Assembly: GCA_030625965.1 (NCBI GenBank)
Contig: DAOUPV010000004.1
Coordinates: 18,948 to 82,947 of the forward strand
Direction: 5' to 3'
Origin: Clostridia bacterium
GTDB taxonomy: Bacteria > Bacillota > TC1 > UBA5767
DNA: 64,000 nucleotides
Below are positions 1 through 61,427 of this stretch, one piece after another. Each line of letters opens with the position of its first letter. Within the stretch, counting starts at the first letter, position 1. Under the pieces are notes generated by a model. The model had not been told where the DNA came from and did not search any database. It was given only the letters and a program-made list of their open reading frames with translations. Made by a program: the position numbers and the translations under genes.

Positions 1-153
1 CATGCGACAGACCTAATCGCGGAAGGCGTACTGGCGGTTGAAAAGGGTATCACCGTCGAGGAACTGACCAAGACCATTCACGCACACCCCACTTTGGCGG
101 AATGCGTTATGGAAGCCGCGGAAGCAGTACACGGACTGTCTGTCCATTCATAG
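1..153 (+). CDS. lpdA: dihydrolipoyl dehydrogenase (E3), C-terminal fragment entering from upstream of the window
   Basis: Frame 1 reads HATDLIAEGVLAVEKGITVEELTKTIHAHPTLAECVMEAAEAVHGLSVHS-stop. HAHPTLxE is the conserved C-terminal His-Pro-Glu motif of the lipoamide dehydrogenase dimerisation domain. A hairpin terminator follows. Confidence 0.7.
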   Translation, partial: HATDLIAEGVLAVEKGITVEELTKTIHAHPTLAECVMEAAEAVHGLSVHS

Positions 154-5434: not shown

Positions 5435-6067
5435 GTGAAAGTTGTAGATTTAACACATAATATCAGAGAAGAAATGCCGATCTATCCAGGGACAGAACCA
5501 CCGAGTCTCAAGGAAACTAGTGCTATTACAGAAGATGGTTTCAAGGAGACCATGCTCAGCTTTTACAGTCACACGGGAACCCATCTGGATTGTCCGGCAC
5601 ATATCTTTCAGGACGGACTAACAACCGAGACTATGAAAATCGATCGGTTCATAGGCAGGGCCGCTGTGCTGGATGCGAGAAAAGCGGGACCCATTATCGA
5701 TAGATGCGCTTTGGAGGGCTTTCTTTCCGGGCATCCAGGACTGGATTATCTGTTATTGCGCACTGGCTGGGAGGAAAAGTGGGGACAGGACGAATATTAC
5801 AAGGGTTTCCCTGTTTTTTCTAAGGAGGCAGCGGAACTGCTGGTTTCCTCCGGCATCAAAGGAATCGGCTTGGATGCCATATCAGTAGATTCTGTCGAGG
5901 ACAGCGATCTTATGCTGCACCGCATCCTGCTCGGAGCCGGCTGCATCATCGTTGAGAATCTCTGTAATCTAGAGGAAGTCACGGATAAGGAGTTTACCTT
6001 CTCCGCATTTCCATTAAAATTTGAAAAGGGTGACGGTTCACCCGTCAGGGCGGTGGCTATCCTTTAG
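5435..6067 (+). CDS. cyclase family protein (kynurenine/aryl-formamidase-like)
   Basis: HTGTHLDCPAH matches the HxGTHxDxPxH metal-binding motif of the cyclase family. GTG start behind TGAGGT. Confidence 0.8.
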   Translation: MKVVDLTHNIREEMPIYPGTEPPSLKETSAITEDGFKETMLSFYSHTGTHLDCPAHIFQDGLTTETMKIDRFIGRAAVLDARKAGPIIDRCALEGFLSGHPGLDYLLLRTGWEEKWGQDEYYKGFPVFSKEAAELLVSSGIKGIGLDAISVDSVEDSDLMLHRILLGAGCIIVENLCNLEEVTDKEFTFSAFPLKFEKGDGSPVRAVAIL

Positions 6068-6130: not shown

Positions 6131-7042
6131 ATGAATACCAAGTTTGTGAAATTAATGGTGGTGATGGGTGTGATGTTCGTATCCGTCGTGGCGCTGGTGG
6201 TCAAATCAGCAACCGCGCCCCTGATTACCACAGCATTTTTCCGTCTATTCATTACCGTACTGATCATGCTGCCGGTGGTAGTTGCCAAGAACGACCGTTC
6301 AACCAGGATTCCCAGGAAGGAACTGATGCTTTCCATGCTCAGCGGACTTATTCTTGGTGTGCATTTCTTCGGTTGGTTTGTGGCCTTGGATTACACCACA
6401 GTGGCCAATGCAACGGTCATCGTGGACGCCAGTTCGGTGTTTACATTGTTGGGAGGACATCTCTTCCTGAACGACAAGATGACCAAGAAGGAGACTATCT
6501 GCGTTACAGCGACGTTCATTGGAGCCATTCTGCTGACCTACCGGTCTCTGTCCTTTGGATCGAATGAATATATAGGGATACTTCTTTCCGTACTATCTTC
6601 AATAACCTTAGCTACGTATATGCTGATTGGGAGGAGAGTGCGACGTACCGTTTCCAATCTGAACTACACTTTCGTCGTATATCTGTTCGGCGCCATCTTC
6701 TTGGCAATTTGCAATATAATCATGGAGGGGAGCTTTAGTGGATTCCCCAGAAGCAATTACCTAATATTTCTCTATCTGGCCATATTCCCCACGCTCTTGG
6801 GACACAGCATATTTTCATGGTCTCTCAAATATATCAAGGCATCGTTTGCGGCCACCATGCTTCTTTTCGTGCCGGTGGTATCCATCATAGGGGCCTATTT
6901 CCTTTTTGGTGAATTACCTCGTGGGGAACAGTTCTTAGGAGCTGGTGTTATCATCATCAGCCTGCTCTTTTTCACGATTGGTAAGGATGAGGCCAGAGAG
7001 AGGGTAGAGGCGGAAAAGAGATTGACTGAAGAAAGCAGATAA
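6131..7042 (+). CDS. EamA/DMT family transporter
   Basis: 303 aa with about ten hydrophobic helices in two repeated halves, typical of EamA. Confidence 0.8.
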   Translation: MNTKFVKLMVVMGVMFVSVVALVVKSATAPLITTAFFRLFITVLIMLPVVVAKNDRSTRIPRKELMLSMLSGLILGVHFFGWFVALDYTTVANATVIVDASSVFTLLGGHLFLNDKMTKKETICVTATFIGAILLTYRSLSFGSNEYIGILLSVLSSITLATYMLIGRRVRRTVSNLNYTFVVYLFGAIFLAICNIIMEGSFSGFPRSNYLIFLYLAIFPTLLGHSIFSWSLKYIKASFAATMLLFVPVVSIIGAYFLFGELPRGEQFLGAGVIIISLLFFTIGKDEARERVEAEKRLTEESR

Positions 7043-8458: not shown

Positions 8459-8588
8459 TCAGTGTGGGGCGCTGGCAATGTCCTCCCATTACAAAAGTCA
8501 ACATTTGCATAAGAAGCCTTTTCTTTTGTAGGGAATTGGAGTATAATGCAGATACAGTATGTTGCATGCATCATACAGGAGGGAAATT

Positions 8589-9239
8589 ATGTCAATGAAT
8601 ATTAACTGTCTGACCAAGGGAGAATATGTTTACCGGATCCTTAAGGACCGCATATTTTCCGGAGAAATGGTCAAGGATAAAACCTATACTGTCGTGGAAA
8701 TTGCCGAGGAGCTGAAGGTAAGCAGGACACCTGTCAGCGAAGCGGTGAAGATCCTAACCTCGCAGGGCTATCTCACCATGCTACCCGCTGTAGGCTTCCG
8801 CGTACGCGAACTTACTTTTGAAGATATCAATGAGATTTTGCTTATCAGCTCAGCTTTGGAACGGTTGGCTTTGAGGCAAATAATCAAGAACAACATAGAA
8901 ATCGATATCGGGGCTCTGAACAAAAACTTAGATGATTGCATACGAGCGATCAGGGCTAAGGACGTGGATGAATACGCCCGTCTGACAGACGAATTCCACA
9001 AGGTGATTTATGGCGGTGCGGGACTACCTAAGCTGCTGGATGTAATGGATAGCATCAGCATCCATGAATCGTATTATCAGGAATCCGTGGTGCGTAACCC
9101 TGAATCGCTGATCGCCCTGATTGAGGACCACAAGCTTCTATTGAGGATTGTAGAGAACAATGAATTAGATGAAGTCGATGGATTTCTGGAACGTCATGTG
9201 TGCAATTGCCTGAAGACACACGAAATCTATCTGAAATAG
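8589..9239 (+). CDS. GntR family transcriptional regulator (FCD-type C-terminal domain)
   Basis: wHTH VVEIAEELKVSRTPVSEAVKILTSQGYL with an all-helical C-terminal domain. Start MSMNIN sits behind AGGAGGG. Confidence 0.85.
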   Translation: MSMNINCLTKGEYVYRILKDRIFSGEMVKDKTYTVVEIAEELKVSRTPVSEAVKILTSQGYLTMLPAVGFRVRELTFEDINEILLISSALERLALRQIIKNNIEIDIGALNKNLDDCIRAIRAKDVDEYARLTDEFHKVIYGGAGLPKLLDVMDSISIHESYYQESVVRNPESLIALIEDHKLLLRIVENNELDEVDGFLERHVCNCLKTHEIYLK

Positions 9240-9280
9240 TTTTGAAAAAAACAATCGTGGGAAACCACAAGGAGGTAAGT

Positions 9281-10012
9281 ATGAAAAGGTTTGATGGTAA
9301 AGTAGCTATCGTAACGGGCGCAGGCCAAGGTCTGGGTGCACAATACGCGAAGGATTTTGCTGCCGATGGAGCGCAGGTCATCGCAGTGGACATGAATCCT
9401 GAGACTCTTAAGAACGTAAAAGCAGAAATTGAAGGCAACGGTGGGAAAGTAGATACATATGTATTGGATATCACCGACTACGACGGCGTTGTAGCCACGG
9501 TTGACGAAGTAGCGGCAAAGTACGGTTCCGTGGATATCCTGATCAACAATGCTGCCGTACACAGAGCTATAGAAGTAGCTGAGACTAGCAAAGCGGACTG
9601 GGATCTGCAGATCAACGTAGACTTGAACGGTTCCTTCTACTGCACCAGAGCGGTATTGCCTTACATGAAAGAGAAAAAGTACGGCAAGATCATCAATATC
9701 TCATCAGCATCAGCAAAAGTATTCTTCCCGGGATTTGGTGCATACGCTGCAGCCAAAGGCGGTCTGGTCAGCTTCACGAAAACCCTGTCGGAAGAAGTGA
9801 AATACGAGAACATTAATGTCAATGCTGTCTATTTAGGCATGATCAATACAGAATATACCAGAGCCAGAATGAGCGAGCACGCATCCGTGACCATTCCTCT
9901 GGAAGAAATGATGCAACCACCTGAAGTATCCAAGGTTATCACTTGGTTGGCTTCCGATGATGCAGCTCCTATCAAGGGCGCAGCCATCGATGTGTTCGGA
10001 AACCACTACTAG
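9281..10012 (+). CDS. SDR family oxidoreductase
   Basis: TGAGQGLG matches TGxxxGxG. NNAA is present. SSASA...YAAAK matches the catalytic YxxxK. Start MKRFDGKVAIVTG sits behind GGAGG. Confidence 0.9.
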   Translation: MKRFDGKVAIVTGAGQGLGAQYAKDFAADGAQVIAVDMNPETLKNVKAEIEGNGGKVDTYVLDITDYDGVVATVDEVAAKYGSVDILINNAAVHRAIEVAETSKADWDLQINVDLNGSFYCTRAVLPYMKEKKYGKIINISSASAKVFFPGFGAYAAAKGGLVSFTKTLSEEVKYENINVNAVYLGMINTEYTRARMSEHASVTIPLEEMMQPPEVSKVITWLASDDAAPIKGAAIDVFGNHY

Positions 10013-10020
10013 GAGGTAGC

Positions 10021-10992
10021 ATGACCAAACAAGTAAGCATTAACCAGATGGCGGTTAAAATCGTCAAAGAAGAGATTATTCCCTTTGAGGCAAAACTGGG
10101 TGTTGAAGTTCACAATATGGATTGTGGCGCAACCTTGATCGATATGGGCCTCAATGTAAAGGGCAGCTGGCAAGCCGGCCTCTTGTTCACCCGTGTAACT
10201 ACTGGTGACATGGCCACCGTACAATTGGGCCGTTGGAGACTGGACGACGAGATCTCCTTCGCAGGACTGGAAATCTTTACCGAAAGCCCATTAATTGCTT
10301 GCCTGGGTTCTCAGATTGCCGGTTGGCAGCTGGGTTCAGGGGAATTTGCAACCATCGGTTCCGGCCCTGCCAGAGCGCAGGCCGTGGTCGAGAGCGACAT
10401 GTATTTTGAGATGACTGACTACCGCGACAAGAATGACGAAGTAGTCCTCTGCATCCAGGACATTAAGCTTCCTTCTGACGATATCGCCAGAGAAGTAGCC
10501 AAGGAATGTGGCGTGGATCCCAAGAATGTCTATCTGATGTTGGCACCAAGTGCCTGCTTGGTAGGTTCTATCCAGGTGACGGCCAGAATTCTGGAACAGG
10601 TTTGCCACAAGATGCATGAGAAAGGTTTCCCTGTAGAGAAGGTAGTGAATTGCTGGGGCAGCGGTCCCATCGCACCAGTTGTAAATGATGAAGTGAAAGC
10701 CATGGGACGCATCAACGATGCCATCCTCTATGGTGGAGAAGTTGAGTTCTGGGTGGATGCTGACGATGTGGAAATCGCCAAGGCTGTACATCAGCTGGTT
10801 TCTAATACATCTTCTCCTTACTATCCGGAGACTTTTGAGAAGGTCTTTGAAGAAGCCGGTAAGGACTTCTACTACATAGATCACGATTTCCACTCCATCG
10901 CAAAGATCCAGATACACAATGTTCGAACGGGCAAATGCTTTGTCGGCGGTGAGCTGAACAAAGACGTGATCCGTGAGACATTTCTTAAGTAG
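10021..10992 (+). CDS. methenyltetrahydromethanopterin cyclohydrolase (Mch) family homologue, copy 1
   Basis: 323 aa, the usual Mch length. Blocks GSGPARAQA, DPKNVYLMLAPSACLVGSIQVTARI and AMGRINDAILYGG match my recollection of the conserved Mch core. The start lies 9 nt after the SDR stop. Confidence 0.7.
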   Translation: MTKQVSINQMAVKIVKEEIIPFEAKLGVEVHNMDCGATLIDMGLNVKGSWQAGLLFTRVTTGDMATVQLGRWRLDDEISFAGLEIFTESPLIACLGSQIAGWQLGSGEFATIGSGPARAQAVVESDMYFEMTDYRDKNDEVVLCIQDIKLPSDDIAREVAKECGVDPKNVYLMLAPSACLVGSIQVTARILEQVCHKMHEKGFPVEKVVNCWGSGPIAPVVNDEVKAMGRINDAILYGGEVEFWVDADDVEIAKAVHQLVSNTSSPYYPETFEKVFEEAGKDFYYIDHDFHSIAKIQIHNVRTGKCFVGGELNKDVIRETFLK

Positions 10993-11012
10993 AGAGAGAA
11001 AGGGGTAAAGTT

Positions 11013-12035
11013 ATGGCTTTAACAAAAGATCGTCTGTGGAAAGTATATAGAGACATGGTACTGATCCGTAGATTTGAGGAAGAAGTTGAGAAGTATGCCC
11101 AAAATGGAACCATCCCAGGTTTTATCCACCTGTCTATCGGACAGGAAGCGGCACAAGCCGGTGTGGTAGAGGCATTGAAGTACACTGACTACAAGTTCCC
11201 TGACCACCGTGGTCATGGTGCCATCGTACTTTCTTCTCCCCAAGAGAGAAGAAAGAACTGCATGTCTGAGATCTTCGCCAAGGAAAGTGGTATCAACCAT
11301 GGTCGTGGCGGATCGATGCACGTTAACGATTTGGAAGCGAGAAACATGGGCTTCAATGGTATCCAGGGTTCTACCGTGGTTACCTGCCTGGGAACCGCAT
11401 TTGATTCCTACTACCGTAAAGCAAACAAGATGGAAGGTTGGGAAGCCGACGACAAGGATCTGGATGTAACTGCTGTATTCATGGGAGACGGTACTTTGGG
11501 AGAAGGTACATGTCACGAATCCTTGAACATGGCTGCTACTTGGAATTTGCCGATCATCTACTGCCTGATCAACAACCATTACGCAATTTCAACTCATTAC
11601 ACCGAATCCCATCCGCAGCAGCAACTGTCTACCTGGGGCAAAGGGTATGAAGTACCCAGTTTCACCGTTGATGGAAACGACATCGAAGCTGTTATTGAAA
11701 TTACAGAGCAAGCAGCCGAGAGAGCCAGAAAAGGTGAAGGTCCGACACTGATCGAGTTCATGACCTACCGTTGGCAAGGTCACTTCTCTGGAGACCCTGC
11801 GGCCTACAGACCAGATGGCGAATTGGAAGCTTGGCAAGCCAAATGTCCTTTGCTGCAGACCAAGAAGAAGCTAATGGAAGTACACGGCTATTCAGAAGAA
11901 GAGCTGGATGCTTTGCATGCTGAAGTGGAAGAAGAAATTCAAGGTTATGTAAAATTCTCTTTGGAATCACCCTCGCCCAAAGCTGAGGATGCTATGAAAT
12001 TTGTTTACATGGACCGTGAAGTGGAGGGAAGATAA
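11013..12035 (+). CDS. thiamine-diphosphate-dependent 2-oxoacid/acetoin-type dehydrogenase E1 alpha subunit
   Basis: GFIHLSIGQEA is present. GDGTLGEG...INNHYAIS matches the GDG-x(n)-NN ThDP motif. GGSMH is present. Confidence 0.9.
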   Translation: MALTKDRLWKVYRDMVLIRRFEEEVEKYAQNGTIPGFIHLSIGQEAAQAGVVEALKYTDYKFPDHRGHGAIVLSSPQERRKNCMSEIFAKESGINHGRGGSMHVNDLEARNMGFNGIQGSTVVTCLGTAFDSYYRKANKMEGWEADDKDLDVTAVFMGDGTLGEGTCHESLNMAATWNLPIIYCLINNHYAISTHYTESHPQQQLSTWGKGYEVPSFTVDGNDIEAVIEITEQAAERARKGEGPTLIEFMTYRWQGHFSGDPAAYRPDGELEAWQAKCPLLQTKKKLMEVHGYSEEELDALHAEVEEEIQGYVKFSLESPSPKAEDAMKFVYMDREVEGR

Positions 12036-13012
12036 TGACTAGAAAACTATCATTTTCCGGCGCTATAAACGAAGCCCTGCATCAGGAGATGGAGAGGGAC
12101 GAAACCGTATTTATTCTGGGTGAAGACGTTGCCAAGATGGGTGGAGACTTCGGTATCACCAAGGGCATCTGGGAGAAATGGCCCAACCGTGCCTACGATA
12201 CCGCTCTTTCTGAGCAAGCTATCCTAGGCCTATGTAACGGCGCAGCCGTCTGTGGCCTGAAGCCGGTAGCCGAGCTGATGTTTGCCGATTTCGTCGGCGT
12301 TTGTTACGACCAGCTGATCAACAACGCTGCCAAACTATGCTACATGTATGACGGCCAGGCTTCTGCCCAAATCGTTGTTCGTGCGGTAACCGGTGGCGGT
12401 ATCCGTTGCGCATATCACCATTCACAGTGTATCGAGCCCTGGTTGATGAACATCCCTGGTCTGGTAATCGTGGCACCGTCCAACGCCTATGAGGCTAAAG
12501 GACTTTTGGTCGGTTCAATCCGCAACCAGAACCCAGTAGTGTTTTTGGAGCACAAACTTCTGTACAACACCAAAAGCGAAGTTCCTGAAGAGCTCTATGA
12601 TATCGAGCTTTACAAGGCTAAAGTGGTTAAAGAAGGATCTGACATCACTATAGTGGCAGCAATGACCATGATGGCTTTTGCTGAGAAAGCAGCCAAGGAA
12701 CTGGAAAAAGAAGGCATCAGCGTAGAAATCATCAACCCGCTGACCATCTTCCCGCTTGATAAAGAGACCATCGTGGATTCTGTAGCCAAGACCGGACGTC
12801 TGGTCGTGGTTCAGGAAGGACCCAAAGTCATGGGCTATGCCGCTGAACTTGGAGCCATGGTAGTTGAGGATATCTTCGAATACCTGAAAGCGCCTCTGAA
12901 GCGTGTGACTTCTTTGGATGTACCAGTGCCGTTTGCACCGGTTCAGGAAGACTATGTATTGCCACATTATGACGACGTAATCAAGGCCTGCCACGAAGTA
13001 ATGGCATTTTAA
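12035..13012 (+). CDS. 2-oxoacid/acetoin-type dehydrogenase E1 beta subunit
   Basis: Transketolase-like pyrimidine-binding and C-terminal domains. The start overlaps the E1alpha stop (TAATG). Confidence 0.9.
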   Translation: MTRKLSFSGAINEALHQEMERDETVFILGEDVAKMGGDFGITKGIWEKWPNRAYDTALSEQAILGLCNGAAVCGLKPVAELMFADFVGVCYDQLINNAAKLCYMYDGQASAQIVVRAVTGGGIRCAYHHSQCIEPWLMNIPGLVIVAPSNAYEAKGLLVGSIRNQNPVVFLEHKLLYNTKSEVPEELYDIELYKAKVVKEGSDITIVAAMTMMAFAEKAAKELEKEGISVEIINPLTIFPLDKETIVDSVAKTGRLVVVQEGPKVMGYAAELGAMVVEDIFEYLKAPLKRVTSLDVPVPFAPVQEDYVLPHYDDVIKACHEVMAF

Positions 13013-13108
13013 GACTGATAGATTGATGTAAGGTTTAAGCCTTACTACATTTAGGTAAAGCGCTGGCGGGTCGATCCCGCCGGCGATTCCTTGATTAAGG
13101 AGGAGAAT

Positions 13109-13690
13109 ATGGCAACGGTAATTACTATGCCAAGATATGGCGCGAATATGGAAGAAGGTACCGTGGCTTCATGGATGGTTGAAGAAGGTGATGCGGTGGA
13201 ACAAGGTGATATCATCGGTGAAATCGCCATCGAGAAGCTGTCCAACGACCTGGAATCTCCGGTAACCGGAACGGTATTAAAACTCATTGCAGAAGAGGAA
13301 GATACTTTGTTATGTGGTGAGCCAATCGCCATTATCGGCGATGAGAATGAAGATATCTCCAGCCTGCTTGGTGCTAAGAATACAGAAGACACAGTAGAAT
13401 CAGTTGAAACTGAATCAACGGAGTCATCAACCACCAGTGGCAATTATGTCGTAGTAGAGATGCCACGTTATGGTGCCAACATGGAAGAAGGAACCGTATC
13501 TGATTGGTTTGTAGAAGTTGGTGACGAAGTAGAAGAAGGCGACGCCATTGGTGAAATCGCCATCGAGAAGCTTTCAAACGAGCTGCTGTCACCGATCAGT
13601 GGTACAGTTCTTAAACTGATTGCAGAGGCAGAAGACACATTGGATTGCGGTGCTCCCATCGCCATCATTGGTGAAGCGGGAACGGATGTA
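13109..13690 (+). repeat. in-gene tandem duplication encoding the two lipoyl domains
   Basis: The two about 230-nt segments are collinear and share an identical ggtgaaatcgccatcgagaagct core. They are separated by an acidic/Ser-Thr linker. Confidence 0.8.
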
Positions 13691-14845
13691 TCCGGTTTTG
13701 ACGGAAGTAGTGCGGCATCGGCAACTGCTCAAGAAGCTGCACCTGCAGTGGAAGCGACAACTGTAGCAGCAGTAGAAACCAGAGAGCCGGTAGGTGAAGT
13801 AAACATTACCCCTAAGGCACTCGATCTGGCGGAAAAAGAAAACATCGATTACCGGGTGATCGTGGGCACAGGAAGACACGGTGCTATCACCAGGGATGAT
13901 GTAAGAAACTATATCGCATCAGGCGCAGCCAAAGCGACAACTCCAGCTGCACCAGCACTGAGTGATGACGTGAAAGCCACACCAAAAGCCATGAAACTGG
14001 CTGAAGAAGTGGCTGTTGATGTACGCAGTATCAAGGGTACCGGCCGACATGGCATGGTTACCCGCGAGGATATCCGTAGCGCTATTGCGTCAGGTACGGC
14101 AGTGAAGCTGACTACCGGTGCAGCCACGGCAGCATCATCGACGATGAGCTTCGGTAAACCTGAAGCCAAACGCGTTAAGATGACCGAAATGCAGAAAGTC
14201 ATTTCCAAGGCCATGATGGGCAGCCTGCAAGAAACAGCGCAGACTACCATTTCTATGGACATGGATGTCAGCAATATGGTAGAAGCCTACCAGGCGAATA
14301 AAGTAGCCTACAAATCTAATGGTGTGAAACTGAGCTACACAGCAATACTGATCAAAGCTGTAGCCATGGCACTGATTGAGCACGAGGATCTGCGCACCAG
14401 CATCGAAGGAAATGATTTCGTGACTACGAATCAGATCAACATCGGTGTGGCTATAGATGTACCGGGCGGTTTGGTAGTGCCCAACATCAAAAAGGCCAAC
14501 GAGAAAGACGTAAGTACCATAGCATTGGAACTGGCGGACTTAGCAGCCAGATCCAAAGAGAATGCGCTCACCATGGATGAGATGACCGGAGGAACCTTCT
14601 CTATCACCAATTTGGGAATGTTCGGCATCAAGTATTTTACACCGGTACTCAATCCACCGGAAAGCGGCATCTTGGGTGTAGGCGCCTTGGTGCAGCAACC
14701 GGTAGTGAAAAACGGTGGTATCTTCATGAACCACGTAATGAACTTCAGTCTGACGCACGATCATCGTATCGTAAACGGCGCTCCGGCTGCTCGCTTCCTG
14801 AATGGAGTCAAAGAGATTCTGGAAAAAGCGGAAGAATTGCTTTAA
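13109..14845 (+). CDS. dihydrolipoamide acyltransferase E2 (two lipoyl domains, two subunit-binding domains, catalytic domain)
   Basis: Two copies of MPRYGANMEEGTV...GEIAIEKLSN lipoyl domains. Two GTGRHG(A/M)(I/V)TR(D/E)D(V/I)R peripheral-subunit-binding motifs. Catalytic SLTHDHRIVNGAPAARF. ATG 13109 sits behind AGGAGGAG. Confidence 0.9.
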   Translation: MATVITMPRYGANMEEGTVASWMVEEGDAVEQGDIIGEIAIEKLSNDLESPVTGTVLKLIAEEEDTLLCGEPIAIIGDENEDISSLLGAKNTEDTVESVETESTESSTTSGNYVVVEMPRYGANMEEGTVSDWFVEVGDEVEEGDAIGEIAIEKLSNELLSPISGTVLKLIAEAEDTLDCGAPIAIIGEAGTDVSGFDGSSAASATAQEAAPAVEATTVAAVETREPVGEVNITPKALDLAEKENIDYRVIVGTGRHGAITRDDVRNYIASGAAKATTPAAPALSDDVKATPKAMKLAEEVAVDVRSIKGTGRHGMVTREDIRSAIASGTAVKLTTGAATAASSTMSFGKPEAKRVKMTEMQKVISKAMMGSLQETAQTTISMDMDVSNMVEAYQANKVAYKSNGVKLSYTAILIKAVAMALIEHEDLRTSIEGNDFVTTNQINIGVAIDVPGGLVVPNIKKANEKDVSTIALELADLAARSKENALTMDEMTGGTFSITNLGMFGIKYFTPVLNPPESGILGVGALVQQPVVKNGGIFMNHVMNFSLTHDHRIVNGAPAARFLNGVKEILEKAEELL

Positions 14846-14850
14846 TAGAA

Positions 14851-14874
14851 GGGATGCTTCGGCATCCCTTTTTT
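14851..14874 (+). terminator. terminator-like hairpin between E2 and the second Mch-like gene
   Basis: gggatgc-ttcg-gcatccc followed by T6, lying 5 nt after the E2 stop and 20 nt before ATG 14894. Confidence 0.6.
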
Positions 14875-14893
14875 GAAAAATGAGGTGAAGAGT

Positions 14894-15859
14894 ATGATTA
14901 GTGTAAATAAGAATGCCATGCCCATGGTCAGGGACCTGATCAAGAGGGCTGAATCATTGGGATGCGCCTATAAGGTCCTGGACAATGGCGCCCATGTTGT
15001 GGATATGGGCATCCACATGCCAGGTAGTTGGGAAGCCGCCCGTATGTTCACGGAAATCAATATGGCCTGCCTGGGTACCTGCAGCTACCGTGATTATGAG
15101 CTGAGTGAGACATATAGCGCCCCTGCTGTCGAAGTATACTGTGACAATCCTTTGCTGGGATGCCTGGCCAGTCAGATCGCTGGATATCCACTGGGAAGCG
15201 GTGATTTTGCGGCTATCGGTTCCGGACCGGCCAGAGCCCAAGCGGCACTTGCAGAAGATCATTGCTTCGAGTACACCGATTACCGTGACCAGCATCATGA
15301 GGTGGTCATCGGAGTGCAGGCCAATGAACTTCCTAATGAGGCCATGGCTGAAAAGGTAGCTGCTGACTGTAAGGTGAAACCGGAGAATGTTTATCTACTC
15401 GCGCATAACACCACTTGCATTGTGGCCAGCGTACAGGTTTCTGCCCGTATCATGGAACAGACCGTCAACAAGATGATTGCCAAGGGATTCGATTTGGATA
15501 CCATCCAGTTCTCTAGAGGACTTTGTGTCGTGGCGCCGGTAGTCTTTGACGATGATGATGCCATGGGCAAGATCAACGACTGCTTGTTGTATGGCGGCAA
15601 GTCCGAGTTCTGGGTGCGCTGGGAGGACGAGAAGATTGAGGAAATCATCCCGCAACTCGTTACCGAGAACAGCAAAGACTACGGGACCCTGTTTAAGGAA
15701 TTGTTTTTAGAAGCCGACCGCAATTTCTACAACATGGACCTGGACATCCACTCACCGGCGGAAGTGACCATCTACAATATGAATACCGGTAACGTTTTTC
15801 ATGCCGGAAAGATCCGTAGGGACCTGATGATTAAAAGTCTATACAACAATTGCAACTAA
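14894..15859 (+). CDS. methenyltetrahydromethanopterin cyclohydrolase (Mch) family homologue, copy 2
   Basis: MISVNKNAMPMV... is an Mch-like N-terminus. GSGPARAQA, ENVYLLAHNTTCIVASVQVSARI and AMGKINDCLLYGG are present. By eye it is clearly a paralogue of 10021-10992 but strongly diverged. RBS GAGGTGAAG. Confidence 0.7.
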   Translation: MISVNKNAMPMVRDLIKRAESLGCAYKVLDNGAHVVDMGIHMPGSWEAARMFTEINMACLGTCSYRDYELSETYSAPAVEVYCDNPLLGCLASQIAGYPLGSGDFAAIGSGPARAQAALAEDHCFEYTDYRDQHHEVVIGVQANELPNEAMAEKVAADCKVKPENVYLLAHNTTCIVASVQVSARIMEQTVNKMIAKGFDLDTIQFSRGLCVVAPVVFDDDDAMGKINDCLLYGGKSEFWVRWEDEKIEEIIPQLVTENSKDYGTLFKELFLEADRNFYNMDLDIHSPAEVTIYNMNTGNVFHAGKIRRDLMIKSLYNNCN

Positions 15860-15875
15860 ATATTGAAAAGAAATG

Positions 15876-15908
15876 GTAGATATATTTAATATATCTGCTT
15901 TTTTTTAT
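15876..15908 (+). terminator. Rho-independent terminator ending the dehydrogenase/Mch cluster
   Basis: agatatat-tta-atatatct stem followed by a T8 run. Confidence 0.7.
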
Positions 15909-15985
15909 CTTTTTAGCTGGCTTGTGGTATTATATAATGGTGCGAAAAATTGTAGATGCACAATATAACAGATTGAGGTATATCA

Positions 15986-17965
15986 ATGAGTGAGTTTTTT
16001 GTTGGCATATTTTATAACGCAAGCATGCTTATCACACTGATTTTTTTCTTTGCATGTATAACATTTAGTATGGAGAATTCCAGAAAGACCTTCCATACGA
16101 TCGTGGCTGGTCTGATTATAGGCATCATGGGCATATCCTTGATGCTCAATCCCATGCCGCTCATGCCAGGCATATTTTTCGATACCAGGACCATCTTGTT
16201 GGCTATTGCGGGCTTCTTTTATGGCTGGATACCAACGTTGATCGCTAGTACCATTACCATCATTTTCCGTTTCATACAGGGGGGATCGGGAGCCTATGTA
16301 GGCTCGCTGACCATATTGATCGCCTCGCTGACCGGACTGATCTTCAGGCAGAAACGCTACCAGCAAATCATGTCCAAGAAAAATGCAAGTCTGGATTTTT
16401 ATCTAATGGGTTTTACGGTTCATGCCTTGATGCTATGTTCCATGCTACTTTTACCAGAAGACAGTATTCAAATCCTGCGCAGGATTGCAATCCCCATTAT
16501 CGTGTTGTATCCGCTGGTCCTGACGCTGATATCAATGATCATCAAGAAACTACAGGGTAACGCCAGAATCAGGATGGAACTGAAAGATAAGGAAGAGAAT
16601 TTTCAGCTATATGTAGATGCATCACCTTACGGAATATTTGTAATCGACGATCAGGGTAGTATCATTGAATACAATCGCAAAATGATAGAGTTGTGCGGCG
16701 TGGACGAGGAGGATCTGCTGGGGAGAGACTTGGTCGATTTGTTTCATGAAGACCGCCAGGATCTGCTCAGCGAGCACTTTACTAATACCAAACTGGCGGA
16801 TGCAGAAACGAATCTGACGTTGGAGTATTTAAGACATGACGGAGATAAACGCATCTTCAAAATAAAGACCATAAGAATCAAAGGCCAGAAGATTCTGGGA
16901 TACCTTGATGATATAACAGCTGAGGAATCCTTGCGCAAGGAAATAGAGTACTTAAACTATCACGACAGCTTGAGCGGCGTATTCAATCGAAGGTTCTTCG
17001 AAGAAGAATGCAAGCGACTGGATGTGACCCGCAAGATGCCCTTGGGGATCGTCATCGGGGATGTCAATGGATTGAAGATCACAAATGACGGTTTTGGTCA
17101 TCTGGCTGGTGACGATTTGATTAAAAAAGCGGCAGATGCTATGCAGCTATCTCTGCGCAAAGAAGATATCATTGCCAGATGGGGTGGGGACGAATTCATC
17201 ATCCTGCTTCCCCAGACCGGGTATAAGGATACGCTACATATCATCGAGAGAATCCAGAAGAACATCTCTAAGGTGAAAACCCAGACCGGGATCCTGTCGA
17301 TCTCATTCGGAATGGCCGTTAAGAAAGAAGAAACCCAGGACTTCCAGGATATTTTCAAGAAAGCGGAAGATTCAATGTACCGCCAGAAAATGTATGATAG
17401 TCCTAGCGCCAAGAATATAACTTTACGCACCATAATAAATACCTTGTATGAATCATCCCCCAGAGAGGAATGGCACTCGCAACGGGTTGCCAGTTATGCC
17501 AAACGGCTCAGCAAAGCTTTGGGTTATGACGAGCGCTATCAGAAGGACGTGGAAGCCGCCGGTATGTTGCACGACATCGGCAAGATTGCCGTCGGGACAG
17601 AAATTCTTGAGAAGAAGGAAAAACTGACTTCAGAGGATTGGCACGAATTGCGGAAACATCCGGAAGTAGGTTACCGTATCTTGCAGAATGTCTCCACATT
17701 GGGTGACATCACGCATACGATACTGTCCCATCATGAATGGTACGATGGATCAGGTTATCCCCAGGGACTCTGTGGAGAGAGCATACCAGAACTATCCCGG
17801 ATTATTTCCGTCGCCGATGCCTATGATGCGATGATCTCGGATCGTCCATACCGGTTGGCTCTGAGCGTGGAAACGGCCAAACAAGAACTTGAGAAAAAAA
17901 TGGGGACACAGTTCGATCCTAGAATCGCCAGAGTATTCTTGGATGAGGTCCTAATAGAAGAGTAA
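15986..17965 (+). CDS. membrane sensor: 5TMR-LYT domain, PAS, GGDEF and HD-GYP domains
   Basis: The N-terminal five-helix region with FFDTRTILLAIAG resembles the LytS-type 5TM receptor. RWGGDEFIILL is the GGDEF motif. HDIGK plus HHEWYDGSGYP form the HD-GYP motif. Confidence 0.85.
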   Translation: MSEFFVGIFYNASMLITLIFFFACITFSMENSRKTFHTIVAGLIIGIMGISLMLNPMPLMPGIFFDTRTILLAIAGFFYGWIPTLIASTITIIFRFIQGGSGAYVGSLTILIASLTGLIFRQKRYQQIMSKKNASLDFYLMGFTVHALMLCSMLLLPEDSIQILRRIAIPIIVLYPLVLTLISMIIKKLQGNARIRMELKDKEENFQLYVDASPYGIFVIDDQGSIIEYNRKMIELCGVDEEDLLGRDLVDLFHEDRQDLLSEHFTNTKLADAETNLTLEYLRHDGDKRIFKIKTIRIKGQKILGYLDDITAEESLRKEIEYLNYHDSLSGVFNRRFFEEECKRLDVTRKMPLGIVIGDVNGLKITNDGFGHLAGDDLIKKAADAMQLSLRKEDIIARWGGDEFIILLPQTGYKDTLHIIERIQKNISKVKTQTGILSISFGMAVKKEETQDFQDIFKKAEDSMYRQKMYDSPSAKNITLRTIINTLYESSPREEWHSQRVASYAKRLSKALGYDERYQKDVEAAGMLHDIGKIAVGTEILEKKEKLTSEDWHELRKHPEVGYRILQNVSTLGDITHTILSHHEWYDGSGYPQGLCGESIPELSRIISVADAYDAMISDRPYRLALSVETAKQELEKKMGTQFDPRIARVFLDEVLIEE

Positions 17966-18053: not shown

Positions 18054-19148
18054 ATGACACCCAGAGAAAAAGAGATCCTGGATATGATCCGAGAAAATCC
18101 GTTGGTGTCCCAAAACGAATTGGCCAGGAGACTAGATATCACGAGAGCCTCAATAGGGGTACATATCAGCAATCTGACTAAGAAGGGTTATCTTATTGGG
18201 AAAGGCTACATCGTTAATGAAAGCCATCCTATCACTGTGATCGGCGGTGCCAACATGGATGTACAGGCCATGCCTCATAAGAGCTTGGTTATGCATGACT
18301 CCAATCCAGGCACCATCACCATGTCCCTGGGAGGTGTTGCTAGAAACATCAGTGAGAACCTGGCACTACTGGGCCTGGATGTCAGACTGGTTAGTGCAAT
18401 CGGGGAAGACGTCTTCGGCGAACGCATCGTAAGAAATGCCTTACACCGAGGGATTAATATTAAAGATATTATTCAGAGTAAGATGGGTAGTACATCGACT
18501 TATAGCTACGTGAACGGCCTGAGTGGAGACATGCTGGTTGCTGTTTCAGATATGGAAATCTTGGAAATGCTGGATGAGACTTTTCTGAGAAACAGGTTGC
18601 CCAAGATAGACAATTCAAATATAACGGTCATTGATGCCAACCTGCCGCAAAACAGCATCTCCTATCTTTGTAACAATCTCAAGAAAACCAAGATTGTGGC
18701 TGATGCCGTTTCGACTAGCAAAGCGCCGAAGCTGCGTCCTATGCTTTCCAAAATATATCTACTGAAACCGAATCTTCTGGAGGCGGAAGTGCTTTTAGAG
18801 CGCTCTATAGTTAGTAAGAAGGAAATCATTGAAGCAGGGGACGAGTTCCTGGAAAAAGGGGTTAAGAAGATTATCATATCCCTGGGTAAAGAAGGCATCT
18901 ATTATGCGGATGAGATTCACAGCTACTTCTTGAAGCCGCGCGTGGATGAAATCGTGAATACAAACGGGGCAGGTGACGCTTTTCTAGCCGCCCTGGTCTA
19001 TGCCTTGGATGCTGATTTCGATACTAAACGCATGCTGGACTTCGCACTTTCTAGTGCTGCATTAGCCAGCATGAGTGAAGAAACAATCCATCCCGACATG
19101 AGTCTTGAACGGGTGTTGGAGATGGAGAGGAGGACCCAAGTTGAATAG
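18054..19148 (+). CDS. psuK: pseudouridine kinase (PfkB family) with N-terminal winged-helix HTH
   Basis: The N-terminus MTPREKEILDMIRENPLVSQNELARRLDITRASIGVHISNL is an HTH. The PfkB signature NTNGAGDAFLAAL is present. The gene is coupled to psuG downstream. Confidence 0.8.
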   Translation: MTPREKEILDMIRENPLVSQNELARRLDITRASIGVHISNLTKKGYLIGKGYIVNESHPITVIGGANMDVQAMPHKSLVMHDSNPGTITMSLGGVARNISENLALLGLDVRLVSAIGEDVFGERIVRNALHRGINIKDIIQSKMGSTSTYSYVNGLSGDMLVAVSDMEILEMLDETFLRNRLPKIDNSNITVIDANLPQNSISYLCNNLKKTKIVADAVSTSKAPKLRPMLSKIYLLKPNLLEAEVLLERSIVSKKEIIEAGDEFLEKGVKKIIISLGKEGIYYADEIHSYFLKPRVDEIVNTNGAGDAFLAALVYALDADFDTKRMLDFALSSAALASMSEETIHPDMSLERVLEMERRTQVE

Positions 19149-20058
19149 TTATTTGAGAGTATCAGATGAGGTAGAAGAAGCTATCCGACTGAAAAAGCCG
19201 GTGGTGGCCCTCGAGTCCACGATCATATCCCATGGTATGCCATATCCCCAGAATGTAGAGACAGCTTTGACTGTTGAGCGTATCATCCGAGAGCAGGGTG
19301 TAGTTCCGGCTACCGTGGGTATCATTAGCGGTACGCTTATTGCTGGACTGAGCCAGAGTGAAATTGAACATATGGGCAAGAATGCGAGCCAGGTCCGTAA
19401 GGTGAGCAGACGCGATCTACCTGTGGTCGTGAGCCGTAAACAGGACGGTGCCACCACGGTGGCGACCACCATGATTATCGCGAAGATGGCGGGGATACGA
19501 TTTTTCGCCACCGGTGGTATCGGTGGCGTGCACCGAGGCGCGAGCCAGAGCTTCGATATTTCAGCCGACTTGATGGAATTAGCAGAAACCGAAGTGGCTG
19601 TTATCAGTTCGGGCATCAAATCGATACTGGATATCAAGGCGACCCTGGAGGTGTTGGAAACCCAGGGGGTGACCGTATTGAGTTATGGATGCGATCGTTT
19701 GCCGGCCTTCTATCTTCGGGACAGCGGTTTGGCGGTGGATGCCAGGGTGGACACGCCGGAGGAATTGGCGGCCATGGCTTATGCCAAATGGGGGATGGGT
19801 ATGAAAGGCGGTTTGCTAATCGGGAATCCGGTCCCGCCTGAATATGAGGAGCAGAAAGGCCGCATCGACGCAGCTATAAGTCTGGCGCTGGAGGAAATGG
19901 AAGCTGACCACATCAGCGGTAAGGAAGCTACCCCGTTTCTTCTGAAGAGGATCAAGGACCTTACAAACGGAGAAAGCCTGAACACCAATATCCAGTTGGT
20001 ATACAGCAATGCCAAGTTGGCAGCCCAAGTTGCCAAAGCCTATAGCCGTTATCTATGA
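19141..20058 (+). CDS. psuG: pseudouridine-5-prime-phosphate glycosidase
   Basis: PVVALESTIISHGMPYPQN and TGGIGGVHRG are IndA/PsuG blocks. The likely start is TTG 19141, 6 nt after GGAGAGGAGGA, overlapping the psuK stop. The ORF-track start 19105 lies inside psuK. Confidence 0.85.
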   Translation: MNSYLRVSDEVEEAIRLKKPVVALESTIISHGMPYPQNVETALTVERIIREQGVVPATVGIISGTLIAGLSQSEIEHMGKNASQVRKVSRRDLPVVVSRKQDGATTVATTMIIAKMAGIRFFATGGIGGVHRGASQSFDISADLMELAETEVAVISSGIKSILDIKATLEVLETQGVTVLSYGCDRLPAFYLRDSGLAVDARVDTPEELAAMAYAKWGMGMKGGLLIGNPVPPEYEEQKGRIDAAISLALEEMEADHISGKEATPFLLKRIKDLTNGESLNTNIQLVYSNAKLAAQVAKAYSRYL

Positions 20059-22646: not shown

Positions 22647-23204
22647 ATGAAAGATATGTTCAAAGTTTCAACCAGAACCATTGTAGCCACTGGTCTGGGT
22701 GCTGCCATTTTTATGCTTTTATTTATGTATGTTAAAGTACCTTCTCCGGTGCCGGAGACTAGTTTTCAAACGGCTTATGGTTTAGGCGCTTTCTTTGCAA
22801 CATTGTTCGGTCCTATCGCGGGCGCGCTGATTGCATTTATCGGTCATGCGCTCAGTGATGCCGTACAGTATGGTTCACCCTGGTGGAGCTGGGTTATCGC
22901 CTCCGGAGTAGCTGGATTCATCTATGGTTTCGCCTATAAGAGTACTTCTGTTGAAGAAGGCACATTTGAAACCAAAGACATCATCCGCTTCAATGTGATA
23001 CAGATTGTCGGAAACCTGATTGCTTGGGTCATCGTAGCGCCTGTTCTGGATATTTTGATCTATGCAGAGCCAGTAAGCTTGGTATTCACCCAAGGTATCA
23101 TTGCAGCGATCATGAATTCCATCAGTGCAGGTGTCATTGGAACATTGTTGCTTATTGCCTACGCAAAAACCAGAACCAAGGAAGGTAGCCTGACTAAAAA
23201 CTAA
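22647..23204 (+). CDS. ECF transporter S (substrate-capture) component, UPF0397/HtsT-like
   Basis: 185 aa with about six TM helices. It lies directly upstream of a fused ECF A-A' ATPase and a T component. Confidence 0.75.
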   Translation: MKDMFKVSTRTIVATGLGAAIFMLLFMYVKVPSPVPETSFQTAYGLGAFFATLFGPIAGALIAFIGHALSDAVQYGSPWWSWVIASGVAGFIYGFAYKSTSVEEGTFETKDIIRFNVIQIVGNLIAWVIVAPVLDILIYAEPVSLVFTQGIIAAIMNSISAGVIGTLLLIAYAKTRTKEGSLTKN

Positions 23205-23224
23205 TACAGGGGCGGGAGAATGTT

Positions 23225-25763: not shown

Positions 25764-25773
25764 GGGGGAGCAA

Positions 25774-61278: not shown

Positions 61279-61427
61279 AAGTGAAGAGTTGTAAGACGTT
61301 AAACATAGCAGGATTTGAGCGCATAAGCGCTAATTTAAGGATGTTTTTCCCTTCTAGTTGAAGTACAATGTTTACATGCTCAGAGAACACATTCTGGTCA
61401 ACTGTCATTGGAAAGAGGAACTCATAT

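Follow-up and report, generated by a model that had tools for sequence, protein, structure and literature searches.

Homologues of a methanogenesis cyclohydrolase in a lipoyl dehydrogenase operon of anaerobic bacteria: a possible route for the catabolism of fused-pyrimidine heterocycles

What might two homologues of methenyltetrahydromethanopterin cyclohydrolase (Mch) be doing in a bacterial operon that encodes the parts of a lipoyl dehydrogenase complex? The genes that raise this question lie in a 64,000-nt stretch of contig DAOUPV010000004.1 from a Clostridia bacterium (assembly GCA_030625965.1), referred to here as the window. Mch is treated as a marker of methanogenesis, of anaerobic methane oxidation and of methylotrophy dependent on tetrahydromethanopterin (H4MPT), and both metagenome surveys and the NCBI pipeline name bacterial genes like these “methenyltetrahydromethanopterin cyclohydrolase”. 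The reading that we favor, with a rough probability of 0.55, is that the operon forms the core of a widespread, previously undescribed pathway by which strict anaerobes catabolize a fused-pyrimidine N-heterocycle of the purine or pteridine type.

Calling of open reading frames (ORFs) in the window showed seven on the plus strand, tightly spaced from a regulator to the second Mch homologue. These genes and the signals around them are as follows.

8542..8588, + strand: putative promoter/operator region read from the sequence, with a -10-like TATAAT at 8542-8547 and a ribosome-binding site, AGGAGGG, at 8577-8583
8557-8576, + strand: candidate GntR operator, the 20-bp palindrome GTATGTTGCATGCATCATAC, located by a palindrome search
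8589-9239, + strand: GntR-family regulator with an FCD ligand-binding domain (PF00392, E=2e-10; PF07729, E=3e-15)
9278-10012, + strand: classical short-chain dehydrogenase/reductase (SDR) oxidoreductase (PF00106, E=5e-59)
10021-10992, + strand: Mch1, Mch-like cyclohydrolase 1, clade M1, between SDR and E1alpha (PF02289, TIGR03120)
11013-12035, + strand: E1alpha, dependent on thiamin diphosphate (ThDP), of the pyruvate dehydrogenase (PDH)/acetoin dehydrogenase type (PF00676, E=1e-70)
12035-13012, + strand: E1beta (PF02779 and PF02780), with an ATGA overlap with the E1alpha stop
13109-14845, + strand: E2, dihydrolipoyl acyltransferase (PF00364 twice, PF02817 twice, PF00198 with E=4e-76); alternative TTG start at 13091
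14894-15859, + strand: Mch2, Mch-like cyclohydrolase 2, clade M2, 3' of E2 (PF02289, TIGR03120); alternative TTG start at 14873
15878..15906, + strand: putative terminator found by eye, an AT-rich hairpin, AGATATAT-TTAA-TATATCT, followed by a T-run

This layout agrees in coordinates, spacing and the overlap of E1alpha with E1beta with a preliminary description of the stretch, which had been made from the letters alone. The identities proposed there for the GntR/FCD, SDR, Mch, E1alpha, E1beta and E2 products were all matched by Pfam or NCBIfam profiles, and the ThDP and DHRxxxG motifs to which it had drawn attention are present in the window and kept in 42-57 homologues. In the regulator both domains were matched, an N-terminal GntR winged helix-turn-helix and a C-terminal FCD domain. 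Because a promoter-like region stands 5' and a terminator-like hairpin 3', the seven genes look like one operon, whose end is likely to be the hairpin at 15878-15906. The consensus terminator scan missed this hairpin because its stem is devoid of G-C pairs; the counts returned by the promoter and terminator consensus scans were at chance level. The palindrome GTATGTTGCATGCATCATAC is identical in two related loci only (L001 and L002), and distant loci carry TAGTTGACTA-type GntR boxes instead.

Both Mch ORFs proved to belong to the Mch family. PF02289 matched them end to end (Mch1, E=2.6e-106 and 355.8 bits; Mch2, E=3e-102 and 342.5 bits; cutoff 25), and with the TIGR03120 equivalog model they scored 320.6 and 306.1 bits, respectively, against a cutoff of 228.8. 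Mch1 aligned over its full length with solved Mch structures (1QLM, E=2.6e-77, and also 4FIO and 4GVQ), as did Mch2 with 1QLM in a phmmer search (E=2e-73), and the two window proteins are 42% identical to one another by BLASTP. When an AlphaFold2 model of Mch1 (pLDDT 93.5, pTM 0.92) was submitted to Foldseek, it matched 1QLM with a TM score of 0.93 (E=4e-41), and only Mch entries were significant; according to this model, Mch1 has the two-domain alpha/beta Mch fold. The family assignment was therefore upheld by profile and sequence matches for both ORFs and by a fold match for Mch1. The catalytic glutamate, Glu186 of Archaeoglobus fulgidus Mch, was placed by means of the sequence difference E186Q (RIVE versus RIVQ) between 4GVQ and 4GVR/4GVS. 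The equivalents of the A. fulgidus R183/E186 pair are R189/E192 in Mch1 and R185/E188 in Mch2, and both residues are 100% conserved in clades M1-M3, which are defined below. Presumably the chemistry of Mch, in which a cyclic formamidinium is converted to an N-formyl amine, has been kept in Mch1 and Mch2.

In other respects these proteins depart from their archaeal relatives. When 85 Mch sequences from loci related to the window were clustered with 32 canonical ones, the canonical group, which includes one Bathyarchaeia locus, separated from three bacterial clades that are linked to gene context.

Clade M1: position between SDR and E1alpha; window member Mch1
Clade M2: position after E2, or in reductase-amidohydrolase-Mch-amine-oxidase clusters; window member Mch2
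Clade M3: adjoins an SDR; no window member

In methanogen Mch, 140 columns show conservation of 90% or more, and 56 of these, including Q93, R113, Q179, R183, E186, N226 and D227, are retained by all three clades. Elsewhere, invariant residues have been switched and the replacements conserved: E140Q, T225I, F280H, D289N and F105A, together with a change of YYY236-238 to EFW. Both window proteins have Q/I/H/N/A at E140/T225/F280/D289/F105, the signature residues of Mch1 being Q146, I231, H291, N300, A110 and I99. An exhaustive search for the family yielded 1031 members among 1.84 billion representatives, and 130 full-length representatives were compared. About 100 of these have E140/T225/F280, proteins of Halorubrum and Halorutilales among them, and in about 30 position 140 is Q, position 225 is I or V and position 280 is H, D or N. 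A Lys94Ile change was considered as a diagnostic switch and rejected, as position 94 varies (Y, K, L, M) throughout the family. Judged from these alignments, the robust bacterial signature is E140Q/T225I/F280H. Haloarchaea do not possess H4MPT, and their Mch (e.g. HVO_2573) has been proposed to be a methenyl-tetrahydrofolate (THF) cyclohydrolase (PMC8305020). Since the Halorubrum and Halorutilales proteins carry the canonical signature, that of the bacteria would not be an adaptation from H4MPT to folate. The conservation of clade-specific residues instead appears to indicate purifying selection on a new function. Two of the changes, E140Q and D289N, replace a carboxylate by an amide and are of the type that might shift recognition from a 2-amino-pyrimidinone to a 2-oxo ring.

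The association of Mch with the dehydrogenase genes is also found in other genomes. One genome per species was scanned, which gave 78 loci, and the counts that follow are over 80 non-redundant loci in which ORFs were called, clustered and annotated. The loci come from Peptococcaceae and other Bacillota metagenome-assembled genomes (MAGs), Anaerolineae/Chloroflexota, Sphaerochaeta, Sediminispirochaeta, Halanaerobiales, Oscillospiraceae, Christensenellaceae, cultured Pseudoflavonifractor species, a Clostridium sp. and a MAG labelled Fusobacteria. Three lie in genomes labelled Clostridioides difficile, each a separate species representative, which we take to be cryptic clades. The closest relative of the window is Clostridia bacterium CP069393.1 (locus L001), in which the operon and its flanks are the same; its Mch1 protein is 96% identical and its operon DNA about 81% identical to those of the window. 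The neighbors found in these loci were the following.

E1alpha: 57/80 loci, 47 of them with a called Mch ORF
SDR: 47/80 loci
E1beta: 45/80 loci
E2: 44/80 loci
COG0402-type amidohydrolase: 36/80 loci
RibD_C-fold protein of about 330 aa: 28/80 loci
E3: 21/80 loci
Bmp/PnrA-type binding protein with ABC permeases and ATPase: 20/80 loci
Mo subunit of the xanthine dehydrogenase (XDH) family: 19/80 loci
2Fe-2S subunit of an XDH-family enzyme: 15/80 loci
DAO-type amine oxidase subunit: 14/80 loci
ABM-like protein (TIGR03792): 14/80 loci
FMN reductase: 14/80 loci
SoxA-type amine oxidase subunit: 10/80 loci
NCS2 (pbuX-like) permease: 8/80 loci

Mch and E1alpha occur together in 47 of the 80 loci, in several phyla, and the immediate neighbor of Mch is most commonly the SDR (44 times), followed by E1alpha (37) and E2 (22). 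This recurrence across phyla implies that the arrangement of Mch with the dehydrogenase is more than chance. A gene for a GntR-FCD regulator is present in 21 loci, usually directly 5' of the SDR, and several loci each contain a lipoate ligase/synthase, an FGGY kinase, a DeoC/LsrF-type aldolase, a 2-hydroxyacid dehydrogenase or a carbamoyltransferase. Mch is accompanied by the amidohydrolase or the RibD_C-fold protein in 37 loci, and of the 23 loci that contain both partners, 22 have them side by side. In most lineages the core is joined by E3, a lipoate ligase or synthase, this reductase/amidohydrolase pair, the XDH-family molybdoenzyme with its 2Fe-2S subunit, and either a nucleobase permease or a Bmp/PnrA-type ABC transporter. 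The most complete version of the operon, with 12 genes, is found in the C. difficile-labelled loci L030, L033 and L035, where permease, 2Fe-2S, XDH, SDR, Mch and E1alpha genes are followed by those for E1beta, E2, amidohydrolase, RibD_C-fold reductase, E3 and the ABM-like protein; it adjoins genes for a DUF5058 membrane protein, an Amidohydro_3 protein and a peptidase M19. Other arrangements are looser. One non-canonical Mch representative (L084) adjoins a Bmp transporter, a 2-hydroxyacid dehydrogenase and a fusion of FolB with an arylformamidase, and another stands in the order amidohydrolase-DAO-Mch, followed by an aldolase and a kinase. Partner genes are missing from seven loci, namely short contigs, the archaeal locus and a divergent Anaerolineae group.

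The preliminary description had remarked that no gene of the H4MPT pathway accompanies these Mch genes. About 45 ORFs of the window were scanned, comprising most but not all of those of at least 150 aa; they specify glycogen metabolism, a 2-oxoacid:ferredoxin oxidoreductase, GGDEF proteins, an energy-coupling factor (ECF) transporter, SbcCD and others, and none of them encodes Fae, Mtd, Ftr/Fhc or an enzyme of H4MPT biosynthesis. The remark thus holds for the ORFs scanned and likewise for the 80 related loci, among whose recurrent neighbors there is no H4MPT-dependent one-carbon (C1) enzyme (Fae, Mtd, Ftr/Fhc, Mer) and no enzyme of H4MPT biosynthesis. FolD, Fhs and formiminotransferase were also absent, both from the recurrent neighbors and from the annotated loci. 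The full-text literature that was searched contains no description of Mch with E1/E2, with XDH or with purine or pterin catabolism, the matches being methanogenesis gene lists, a haloarchaeal annotation paper and two papers on 2,8-dioxopurines. Recruitment of Mch genes into a catabolic dehydrogenase cluster is therefore without a description in that literature, in keeping with the earlier statement that no described pathway with this combination of genes was known. Three results support the idea, already put forward in the preliminary description, that catabolism may have recruited the Mch fold for the hydrolysis of a cyclic amidine: the catalytic Arg/Glu pair is retained, the clade signature differs from that of both the H4MPT-type and the haloarchaeal (presumed THF-type) enzymes, and the neighbors are heterocycle-catabolic genes.

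What would the dehydrogenase complex contribute? The SDR motifs, TGxxxGxG and YxxxK, are conserved in 55 homologues, and the protein has sub-threshold scores that are BudC-like and FabG-like, including 181 bits with NF052558, the model for the meso-2,3-butanediol dehydrogenase BudC (cutoff 270). E1alpha, in which the GDG-x27-NN motif is conserved across 57 homologues, scored 295 bits with the PDH model TIGR03182 (cutoff 394), and its best match in the PDB is human PDH E1alpha (E=1e-41). E1beta just exceeded the cutoff of NF006667, a PDH E1beta subfamily (325.8 versus 321 bits). E2 consists of two lipoyl domains, two peripheral-subunit-binding (E3-binding) domains and a catalytic domain with HDHRIVNG; it is below all equivalog cutoffs, and HDHRxxNG is kept in 42 homologous E2 sequences from related loci. 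In its domains and motifs the module has the structure by which 2-oxoacid/acetoin dehydrogenase complexes are defined, but the profile scores of its subunits do not place it in one of the known substrate classes (pyruvate, 2-oxoglutarate, branched-chain or acetoin). The lipoyl lysine of E2 and its 42 homologues has the context I-E-K-L-x-N, in which K and N are 100% conserved; lipoyl domains usually have E-T-D-K-A. This context could reflect a dedicated lipoylation enzyme, a notion suggested by the frequent presence in the cluster of genes of the LplA/LipB and LipA types.

The complex had been called E3-less in the preliminary description, and this is correct for the operon, but the sequence that follows lies at the edge of the window.

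1..153, + strand: 3' end of the gene for E3 (dihydrolipoyl dehydrogenase), the last 50 codons and the stop, identified by tblastn and by synteny with L001 and L006

Nucleotides 1-150 encode a peptide 92% identical to residues 410-459 of the L001 E3 (tblastn), a protein that scores 586 bits with TIGR01350 (cutoff 408.8). The E3 gene, cut by the window edge, is 8.4 kb upstream of the operon and probably serves the complex. In 21 of the 80 loci E3 lies inside the cluster; an E3 neighbor from such loci scored 546 bits with TIGR01350. The overall interpretation offered earlier is partly supported: it stands with respect to the Mch fold, the GntR-linked operon with SDR and E1-E2, and the lack of H4MPT genes, and needs correction in the term E3-less, which is true only locally.

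Further clues to the pathway come from the partner proteins in related loci. The COG0402 amidohydrolase is closest to deaminases that act on 8-oxoguanine, on methylthioadenosine/S-adenosylhomocysteine, on 5'-deoxyadenosine and on guanine, and scored 222 bits with the SsnA model (cutoff 444). The pbuX-like permease scored 349 bits with its model. The Mo subunit scored 639 bits with the XdhA model (cutoff 780), and it keeps the residues that we take to be the equivalents of the substrate arginine and the catalytic glutamate of xanthine dehydrogenase. Its closest solved relative is 4-hydroxybenzoyl-CoA reductase, a dehydroxylase, and the subunit was consequently set aside as a pointer to the substrate or to the direction of the reaction. 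A model of the RibD_C-fold protein (pLDDT 87) is about equally like the Rib7/RibD pyrimidine reductases and Mycobacterium tuberculosis Rv2671, which was crystallized with a dihydro-/tetrahydropteridine. Because the ribosylaminopyrimidine reductases and Rv2671 match about equally, this model was dropped as a means to discriminate between substrates. Similarly, the best PDB matches of the binding protein (“Lbp” 7X0R, BmpA/D, Med and an atrazine/guanine binder) are not decisive as to its ligand. In Halanaerobiales a methyl-THF:corrinoid methyltransferase gene keeps company with genes for a GH31 glycosidase and a URO-D-family methyltransferase, a hint that methylated or glycosylated forms of the substrate may be handled by some variants of the cluster. 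A possible, weakly linked accessory gene was seen in the window itself.

5435..6067, + strand: arylformamidase-like “cyclase” (PF04199, E=5e-32; TIGR03035, 114 bits, cutoff 223)

Its product could remove the formyl group from the N-formyl amine that an Mch-type reaction would give, a suggestion that is tentative because conservation of the gene does not extend to L001. The corresponding place 5' of the operon is taken in L001 by a FolB gene (6277-6654).

These considerations can be combined in a scheme. The heterocycle would be imported, and in clusters that have the peripheral genes the Mo enzyme would adjust its oxidation state. The reductase/amidohydrolase pair might then dearomatize the ring reductively and hydrolyze or deaminate it, by analogy with YgfK/UacX and SsnA. 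The resulting non-aromatic cyclic formamidine, of the imidazoline type that is found in methenyl-H4MPT, would be opened to an N-formyl amine by the Mch-like enzymes with the glutamate as general base. The SDR would oxidize the remaining hydroxylated carbon fragment to an alpha-hydroxyketone or a 2-oxo compound, which E1 would cleave with the aid of ThDP, the acyl group passing to lipoyl-E2 and then to CoA. Finally, the E3 encoded 8.4 kb upstream would reoxidize the lipoamide, and the acyl-CoA could yield ATP. Since only the core genes are found in the lineage of the window, this lineage may take in an intermediate that has already been reduced or opened. As to the substrate class, we tentatively suggest, at less than even odds, a purine base or nucleoside in which C8 or C2 is unsubstituted; a pteridine, folate or methanopterin-type compound seems unlikely, and some other cyclic amidine distinctly improbable. 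Two groups of candidates were set aside. Ectoine and hydroxyectoine, as cyclic acetamidines, would leave the XDH, the COG0402 hydrolase, the RibD_C reductase and the nucleobase permeases unexplained, and queuine, riboflavin and histidine-derived imidazoles either offer no hydrolysable non-aromatic formamidine or are a misfit with the accessory genes.

Several observations weigh against this proposal. In a purine base it is hard to see an acetoin-like moiety on which the SDR and E1 could act, so that the link from ring opening to E1 is the weak point of the scheme; the C3 skeleton of a purine base would favor a pyruvate-type E1, and polyol-bearing pterins or nucleosides an acetoin-type one. The window ORFs that were scanned include no reductase, amidohydrolase, XDH or cluster-linked transporter, and in this lineage the connection with heterocycles is therefore made by association with homologous clusters. 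Nor was a RibD_C-fold homologue from the 2.56-Mb genome of the closest relative among the matches of a protein search of limited sensitivity. With identities of 40-45% to the archaeal enzymes and scores above the cutoff that NCBI sets for true Mch equivalogs, both Mch ORFs could still be active on a methenyl-tetrahydropterin. The active site of A. fulgidus Mch was reportedly assigned by Upadhyay et al. in 2012 to the segment 93-95, Arg183 and Glu186. The switched residues presumably line the ligand pocket, to judge from their proximity in sequence to the catalytic residues and from the A. fulgidus structure. Lastly, a riboswitch search of the window and 18 loci returned nothing at the gathering score other than tRNAs, and no purine riboswitch precedes the pbuX-like permease of the C. 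difficile-labelled clusters.

Four other explanations were weighed. The Mch proteins might engage in ordinary C1 chemistry, interconverting methenyl- and formyl-THF or an H4MPT-like cofactor to handle formate-level C1 units from fermentation, with the SDR, E1 and E2 as mere neighbors. The scores above the TIGR03120 cutoff, the retention of R183/E186, the identity to solved Mch and the precedent of haloarchaea, which lack H4MPT and keep an Mch thought to use THF (PMC8305020), are all in accord with this idea. A methyl-THF:corrinoid methyltransferase gene (Pterin_bind; window 816-1640, 307 bits with NF005719) is moreover near the cluster in nine loci, including L045, L049, L051, L053, L054 and L081. 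However, the genes that such chemistry would be expected to keep company with, from Fae, Mtd, Ftr and Fhc to FolD, Fhs and formiminotransferase, are missing from the recurrent neighbors and annotated loci, the cluster clades lack the E140/T225/F280 common to haloarchaeal and H4MPT-type Mch, each cluster holds two or three Mch paralogues, and Mch would seem to act in one pathway with the SDR and E1alpha, since its gene stands between theirs in most loci. We consider ordinary C1 metabolism improbable. Still less probable is that the locus is a plain acetoin/2,3-butanediol or pyruvate dehydrogenase operon in which the Mch genes are unrelated passengers or decaying relics. An SDR with E1alpha/beta, E2, E3 and lipoate synthase or ligase is the gene set for catabolism of acetoin and 2,3-butanediol in the aco clusters of Pelobacter carbinolicus and Bacillus, the SDR has its sub-threshold likeness to BudC, and E1beta passes a PDH cutoff; but a passenger would hardly be found inside the module in 47 loci across phyla, with the SDR as neighbor 44 times and E1alpha 37 times, nor would a relic remain full length in both copies with its catalytic residues, with a confidently predicted fold in Mch1 and with clade-specific residues that appear to be under purifying selection.

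A third alternative concerns the degradation of pterin-type cofactors. The substrates would be folates, methanopterin of methanogen origin or pterins that bear a polyhydroxyalkyl chain, for example neopterin or biopterin. The RibD_C enzyme would reduce the pteridine ring, the amidohydrolase would remove the 2-amino group, Mch would open the methenyl-bridged imidazoline on the (deaminated) tetrahydropteridine, and SDR/E1/E2 would cleave the side chain, methyl-branched or a polyol, to yield an acyl-CoA. To our knowledge, the only known substrates of Mch are methenyl-tetrahydropterins, and the COG0402 and XDH families include pterin-active members. It is also consistent with the resemblance of the RibD_C-fold model to Rv2671, with the amine oxidases (DAO- and SoxA-like), 2-hydroxyacid dehydrogenase, FGGY kinase, DeoC-type aldolase and GH31 glycosidase of some variants, and with the E140Q and D289N switches, which might suit a lumazine-like 2-oxo ring instead of a 2-amino one; many of the source samples, judged by the names of their records, look anoxic and probably methanogenic. 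FolB (dihydroneopterin aldolase) adds to this. Proteins in or near the cluster pass the FolB equivalog cutoff in L001 and L084, a FolB homologue was detected by tblastn at L052/L076, and one L084 copy (15771-16835) is fused to an arylformamidase and adjoins the non-canonical Mch and the Bmp ABC transporter. The link with FolB and arylformamidase is real but sporadic, being confined to about four lineages. Further, the NCS2 nucleobase permease in the C. difficile-labelled and Clostridium sp. clusters is an unlikely carrier of large cofactors, and simple pterins contain no cyclic formamidine, so that Mch would be explained for methenyl-bridged cofactors only. Degradation of pterin cofactors is, on this evidence, unlikely. 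The remaining possibility, to which we assign very little weight, is that the cluster is biosynthetic and makes an imidazoline- or formamide-containing cofactor or natural product, with Mch closing the ring and E2 donating an acyl group. In its favor, Mch can work in either direction, acyl transfer is what E2-type domains do, and the FolB neighbors are biosynthetic enzymes. Yet the regulators (GntR/FCD, GntR/UTRA, LacI and XRE-cupin) and the uptake transporters (Bmp ABC and NCS2) are typical of catabolic operons, XDH, COG0402 hydrolase and carbamoyltransferase are hallmarks of catabolism, and no synthetase, ligase or tailoring enzyme recurs in the 80 loci.

A more speculative extension, for which the odds appear long, is that bacteria living beside methanogens, and their relatives in the gut, scavenge and catabolize pterin C1 cofactors such as methanopterin, its methenyl form and folate or pterin relatives. 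A neofunctionalized Mch would then open the methenyl-bridged imidazoline of a deaminated, lumazine-type tetrahydropteridine, and the complex, like an acetoin dehydrogenase, would harvest the methyl-branched or polyol skeleton as acyl-CoA. If true, a methanogen cofactor would for the first time have a catabolic pathway assigned to it, and an enzyme of methanogenesis would have been re-used horizontally on the necromass of methanogens. The catabolism of purine- or pteridine-type compounds favored here would, if correct, be a new anaerobic route in which a cyclohydrolase replaces a hydantoinase and energy is obtained by way of a ThDP/lipoyl complex. There is also a practical consequence. Since about 30 of the 130 family representatives are bacterial paralogues with an apparently altered pocket in catabolic clusters, carried by Clostridia, Anaerolineae, spirochaetes and Halanaerobiales, annotations and counts of methane-pathway genes are misleading for them. 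Some carriers are gut organisms (Pseudoflavonifractor, Oscillospiraceae and the C. difficile-labelled genomes), in which purine turnover would bear on the urate balance of the host, and the existence of cultured carriers makes direct testing possible. Among these are Pseudoflavonifractor gallinarum DSM 107456, Pseudoflavonifractor sp. MSJ-37, Clostridium sp. 1001271st1_H5 and the C. difficile-labelled strains HC132 and CD160.

The surroundings of the operon hold further genes that we record here. Directly 3' of it is a gene for a signalling protein of the 5TM-PAS-GGDEF-HD type (15986-17965), which also follows the operon in L001, and then a pseudouridine kinase/glycosidase-like pair (HTH+PfkB, 18054-19148; Indigoidine_A, 19105-20058), again as in L001. 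An ECF module occupies the start of the region 22647-28268 (PF07155 S component, 22647-23204; fused ATPase, 23225-24955; CbiQ-type T component, 24876-25763), and directly after the module are two paralogous genes for S-adenosylmethionine (SAM) hydroxide adenosyltransferase (DUF62, SAM_HAT_N/C; 25774-26628 and 27414-28268), an unusual pairing that points to the import or processing of an adenosyl compound. A Rieske + VanA_C oxygenase-like protein (33822-34829) and a fusion of two CDGSH zinc fingers with Fer4_19 and a glutamate-synthase domain (37857-39704) are both unusual in an apparently strict anaerobe, and a full-length bacterial serpin (36610-37824; PF00079, E=8e-112) was found in this Clostridia genome. 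About 40 kb from the operon is a lone gene for a Bmp/PnrA-family binding protein (55968-57008), with no adjacent permease or ATPase gene. SbcD (57374-58513), an SbcC-like ATPase (58510-61278) and a protein with the C-terminal domain of Wadjet JetD (61368-62627) stand in a row and may be related to defense.

It is useful, finally, to compare the proposed pathway with known systems. Canonical Mch (1QLM, 4GVQ-4GVS, 4FIO) shares with the window proteins full-length homology, the fold (TM 0.93), Arg183/Glu186 and many core residues, but the latter belong to bacterial clades M1-M3 with replaced invariants and two or three paralogues per cluster, and their genes lie outside any Fae/Mtd/Ftr/Fhc context, within dehydrogenase-complex operons of anaerobic Bacillota, Chloroflexota and Spirochaetota. 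Haloarchaeal Mch (HVO_2573; PMC8305020) sets a precedent for Mch homologues at work in organisms that lack H4MPT; it keeps E140/T225/F280 and acts in C1 metabolism, whereas the cluster proteins have lost this signature and stand in a catabolic context. With PDH and with the acetoin/2,3-butanediol system (AcoABCL with BudC/ButA and lipoate synthase, as in Pelobacter carbinolicus and Bacillus subtilis) the cluster has in common an SDR, a heterotetramer-type E1alpha/beta, a lipoyl E2 with peripheral-subunit-binding domain and DHR motif, E3, a lipoate ligase or synthase in many loci and the expected output of acyl-CoA. It differs from them in that Mch is placed between SDR and E1alpha and after E2, in the score of E1alpha below the PDH cutoff, in the IEKLxN context of E2 and in the purine/pterin-type enzymes alongside. 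The early steps of riboflavin and archaeal pterin synthesis (GTP cyclohydrolase II/III, formamide hydrolase, RibD) offer a similar trio, a formamidine-opening cyclohydrolase, a 2-amino deaminase and a RibD_C-fold reductase, and an arylformamidase-like gene is sometimes near the cluster; the cyclohydrolase and deaminase of the cluster are, however, unrelated proteins, its setting is one of catabolism, with transporters and a complex that would form acyl-CoA, and its substrates are, as far as can be told, not nucleotides.

Closest in logic is the reductive urate (2,8-dioxopurine) pathway, which employs XdhD, YgfK/UacX, SsnA, HyuA, YgeW/UacY, YgeY and YgeX (PMC12507026; bioRxiv 10.1101/2025.04.24.650524). 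There, too, an XDH-family enzyme, a reductase coupled to a COG0402 amidohydrolase and a second ring hydrolase lead to a C3/C2 acid, and the phylogenetic range is similar, including C. difficile, Chloroflexota and Spirochaetota. The dearomatizing reductase of that pathway must be coupled to the COG0402 hydrolase, and the genes for the two are adjacent (PMC12507026). The resemblance is in logic only, as HyuA, YgeY, YgeX and YgfK/UacX are absent from the window and from the related clusters, and neither PMC12507026 nor bioRxiv 10.1101/2025.04.24.650524 mentions Mch or lipoyl enzymes. The two differ in their enzymes. The reductase of the cluster has a RibD_C/DHFR fold and resembles neither YgfK nor PydA. 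For the second ring opening the cluster has an Mch-like enzyme, as would befit a C-H formamidine, and the urate pathway a hydantoinase, as befits a C8=O ureide. The end module is an SDR with a ThDP/lipoyl complex, where the urate pathway uses a pyridoxal phosphate-dependent diaminopropionate lyase.

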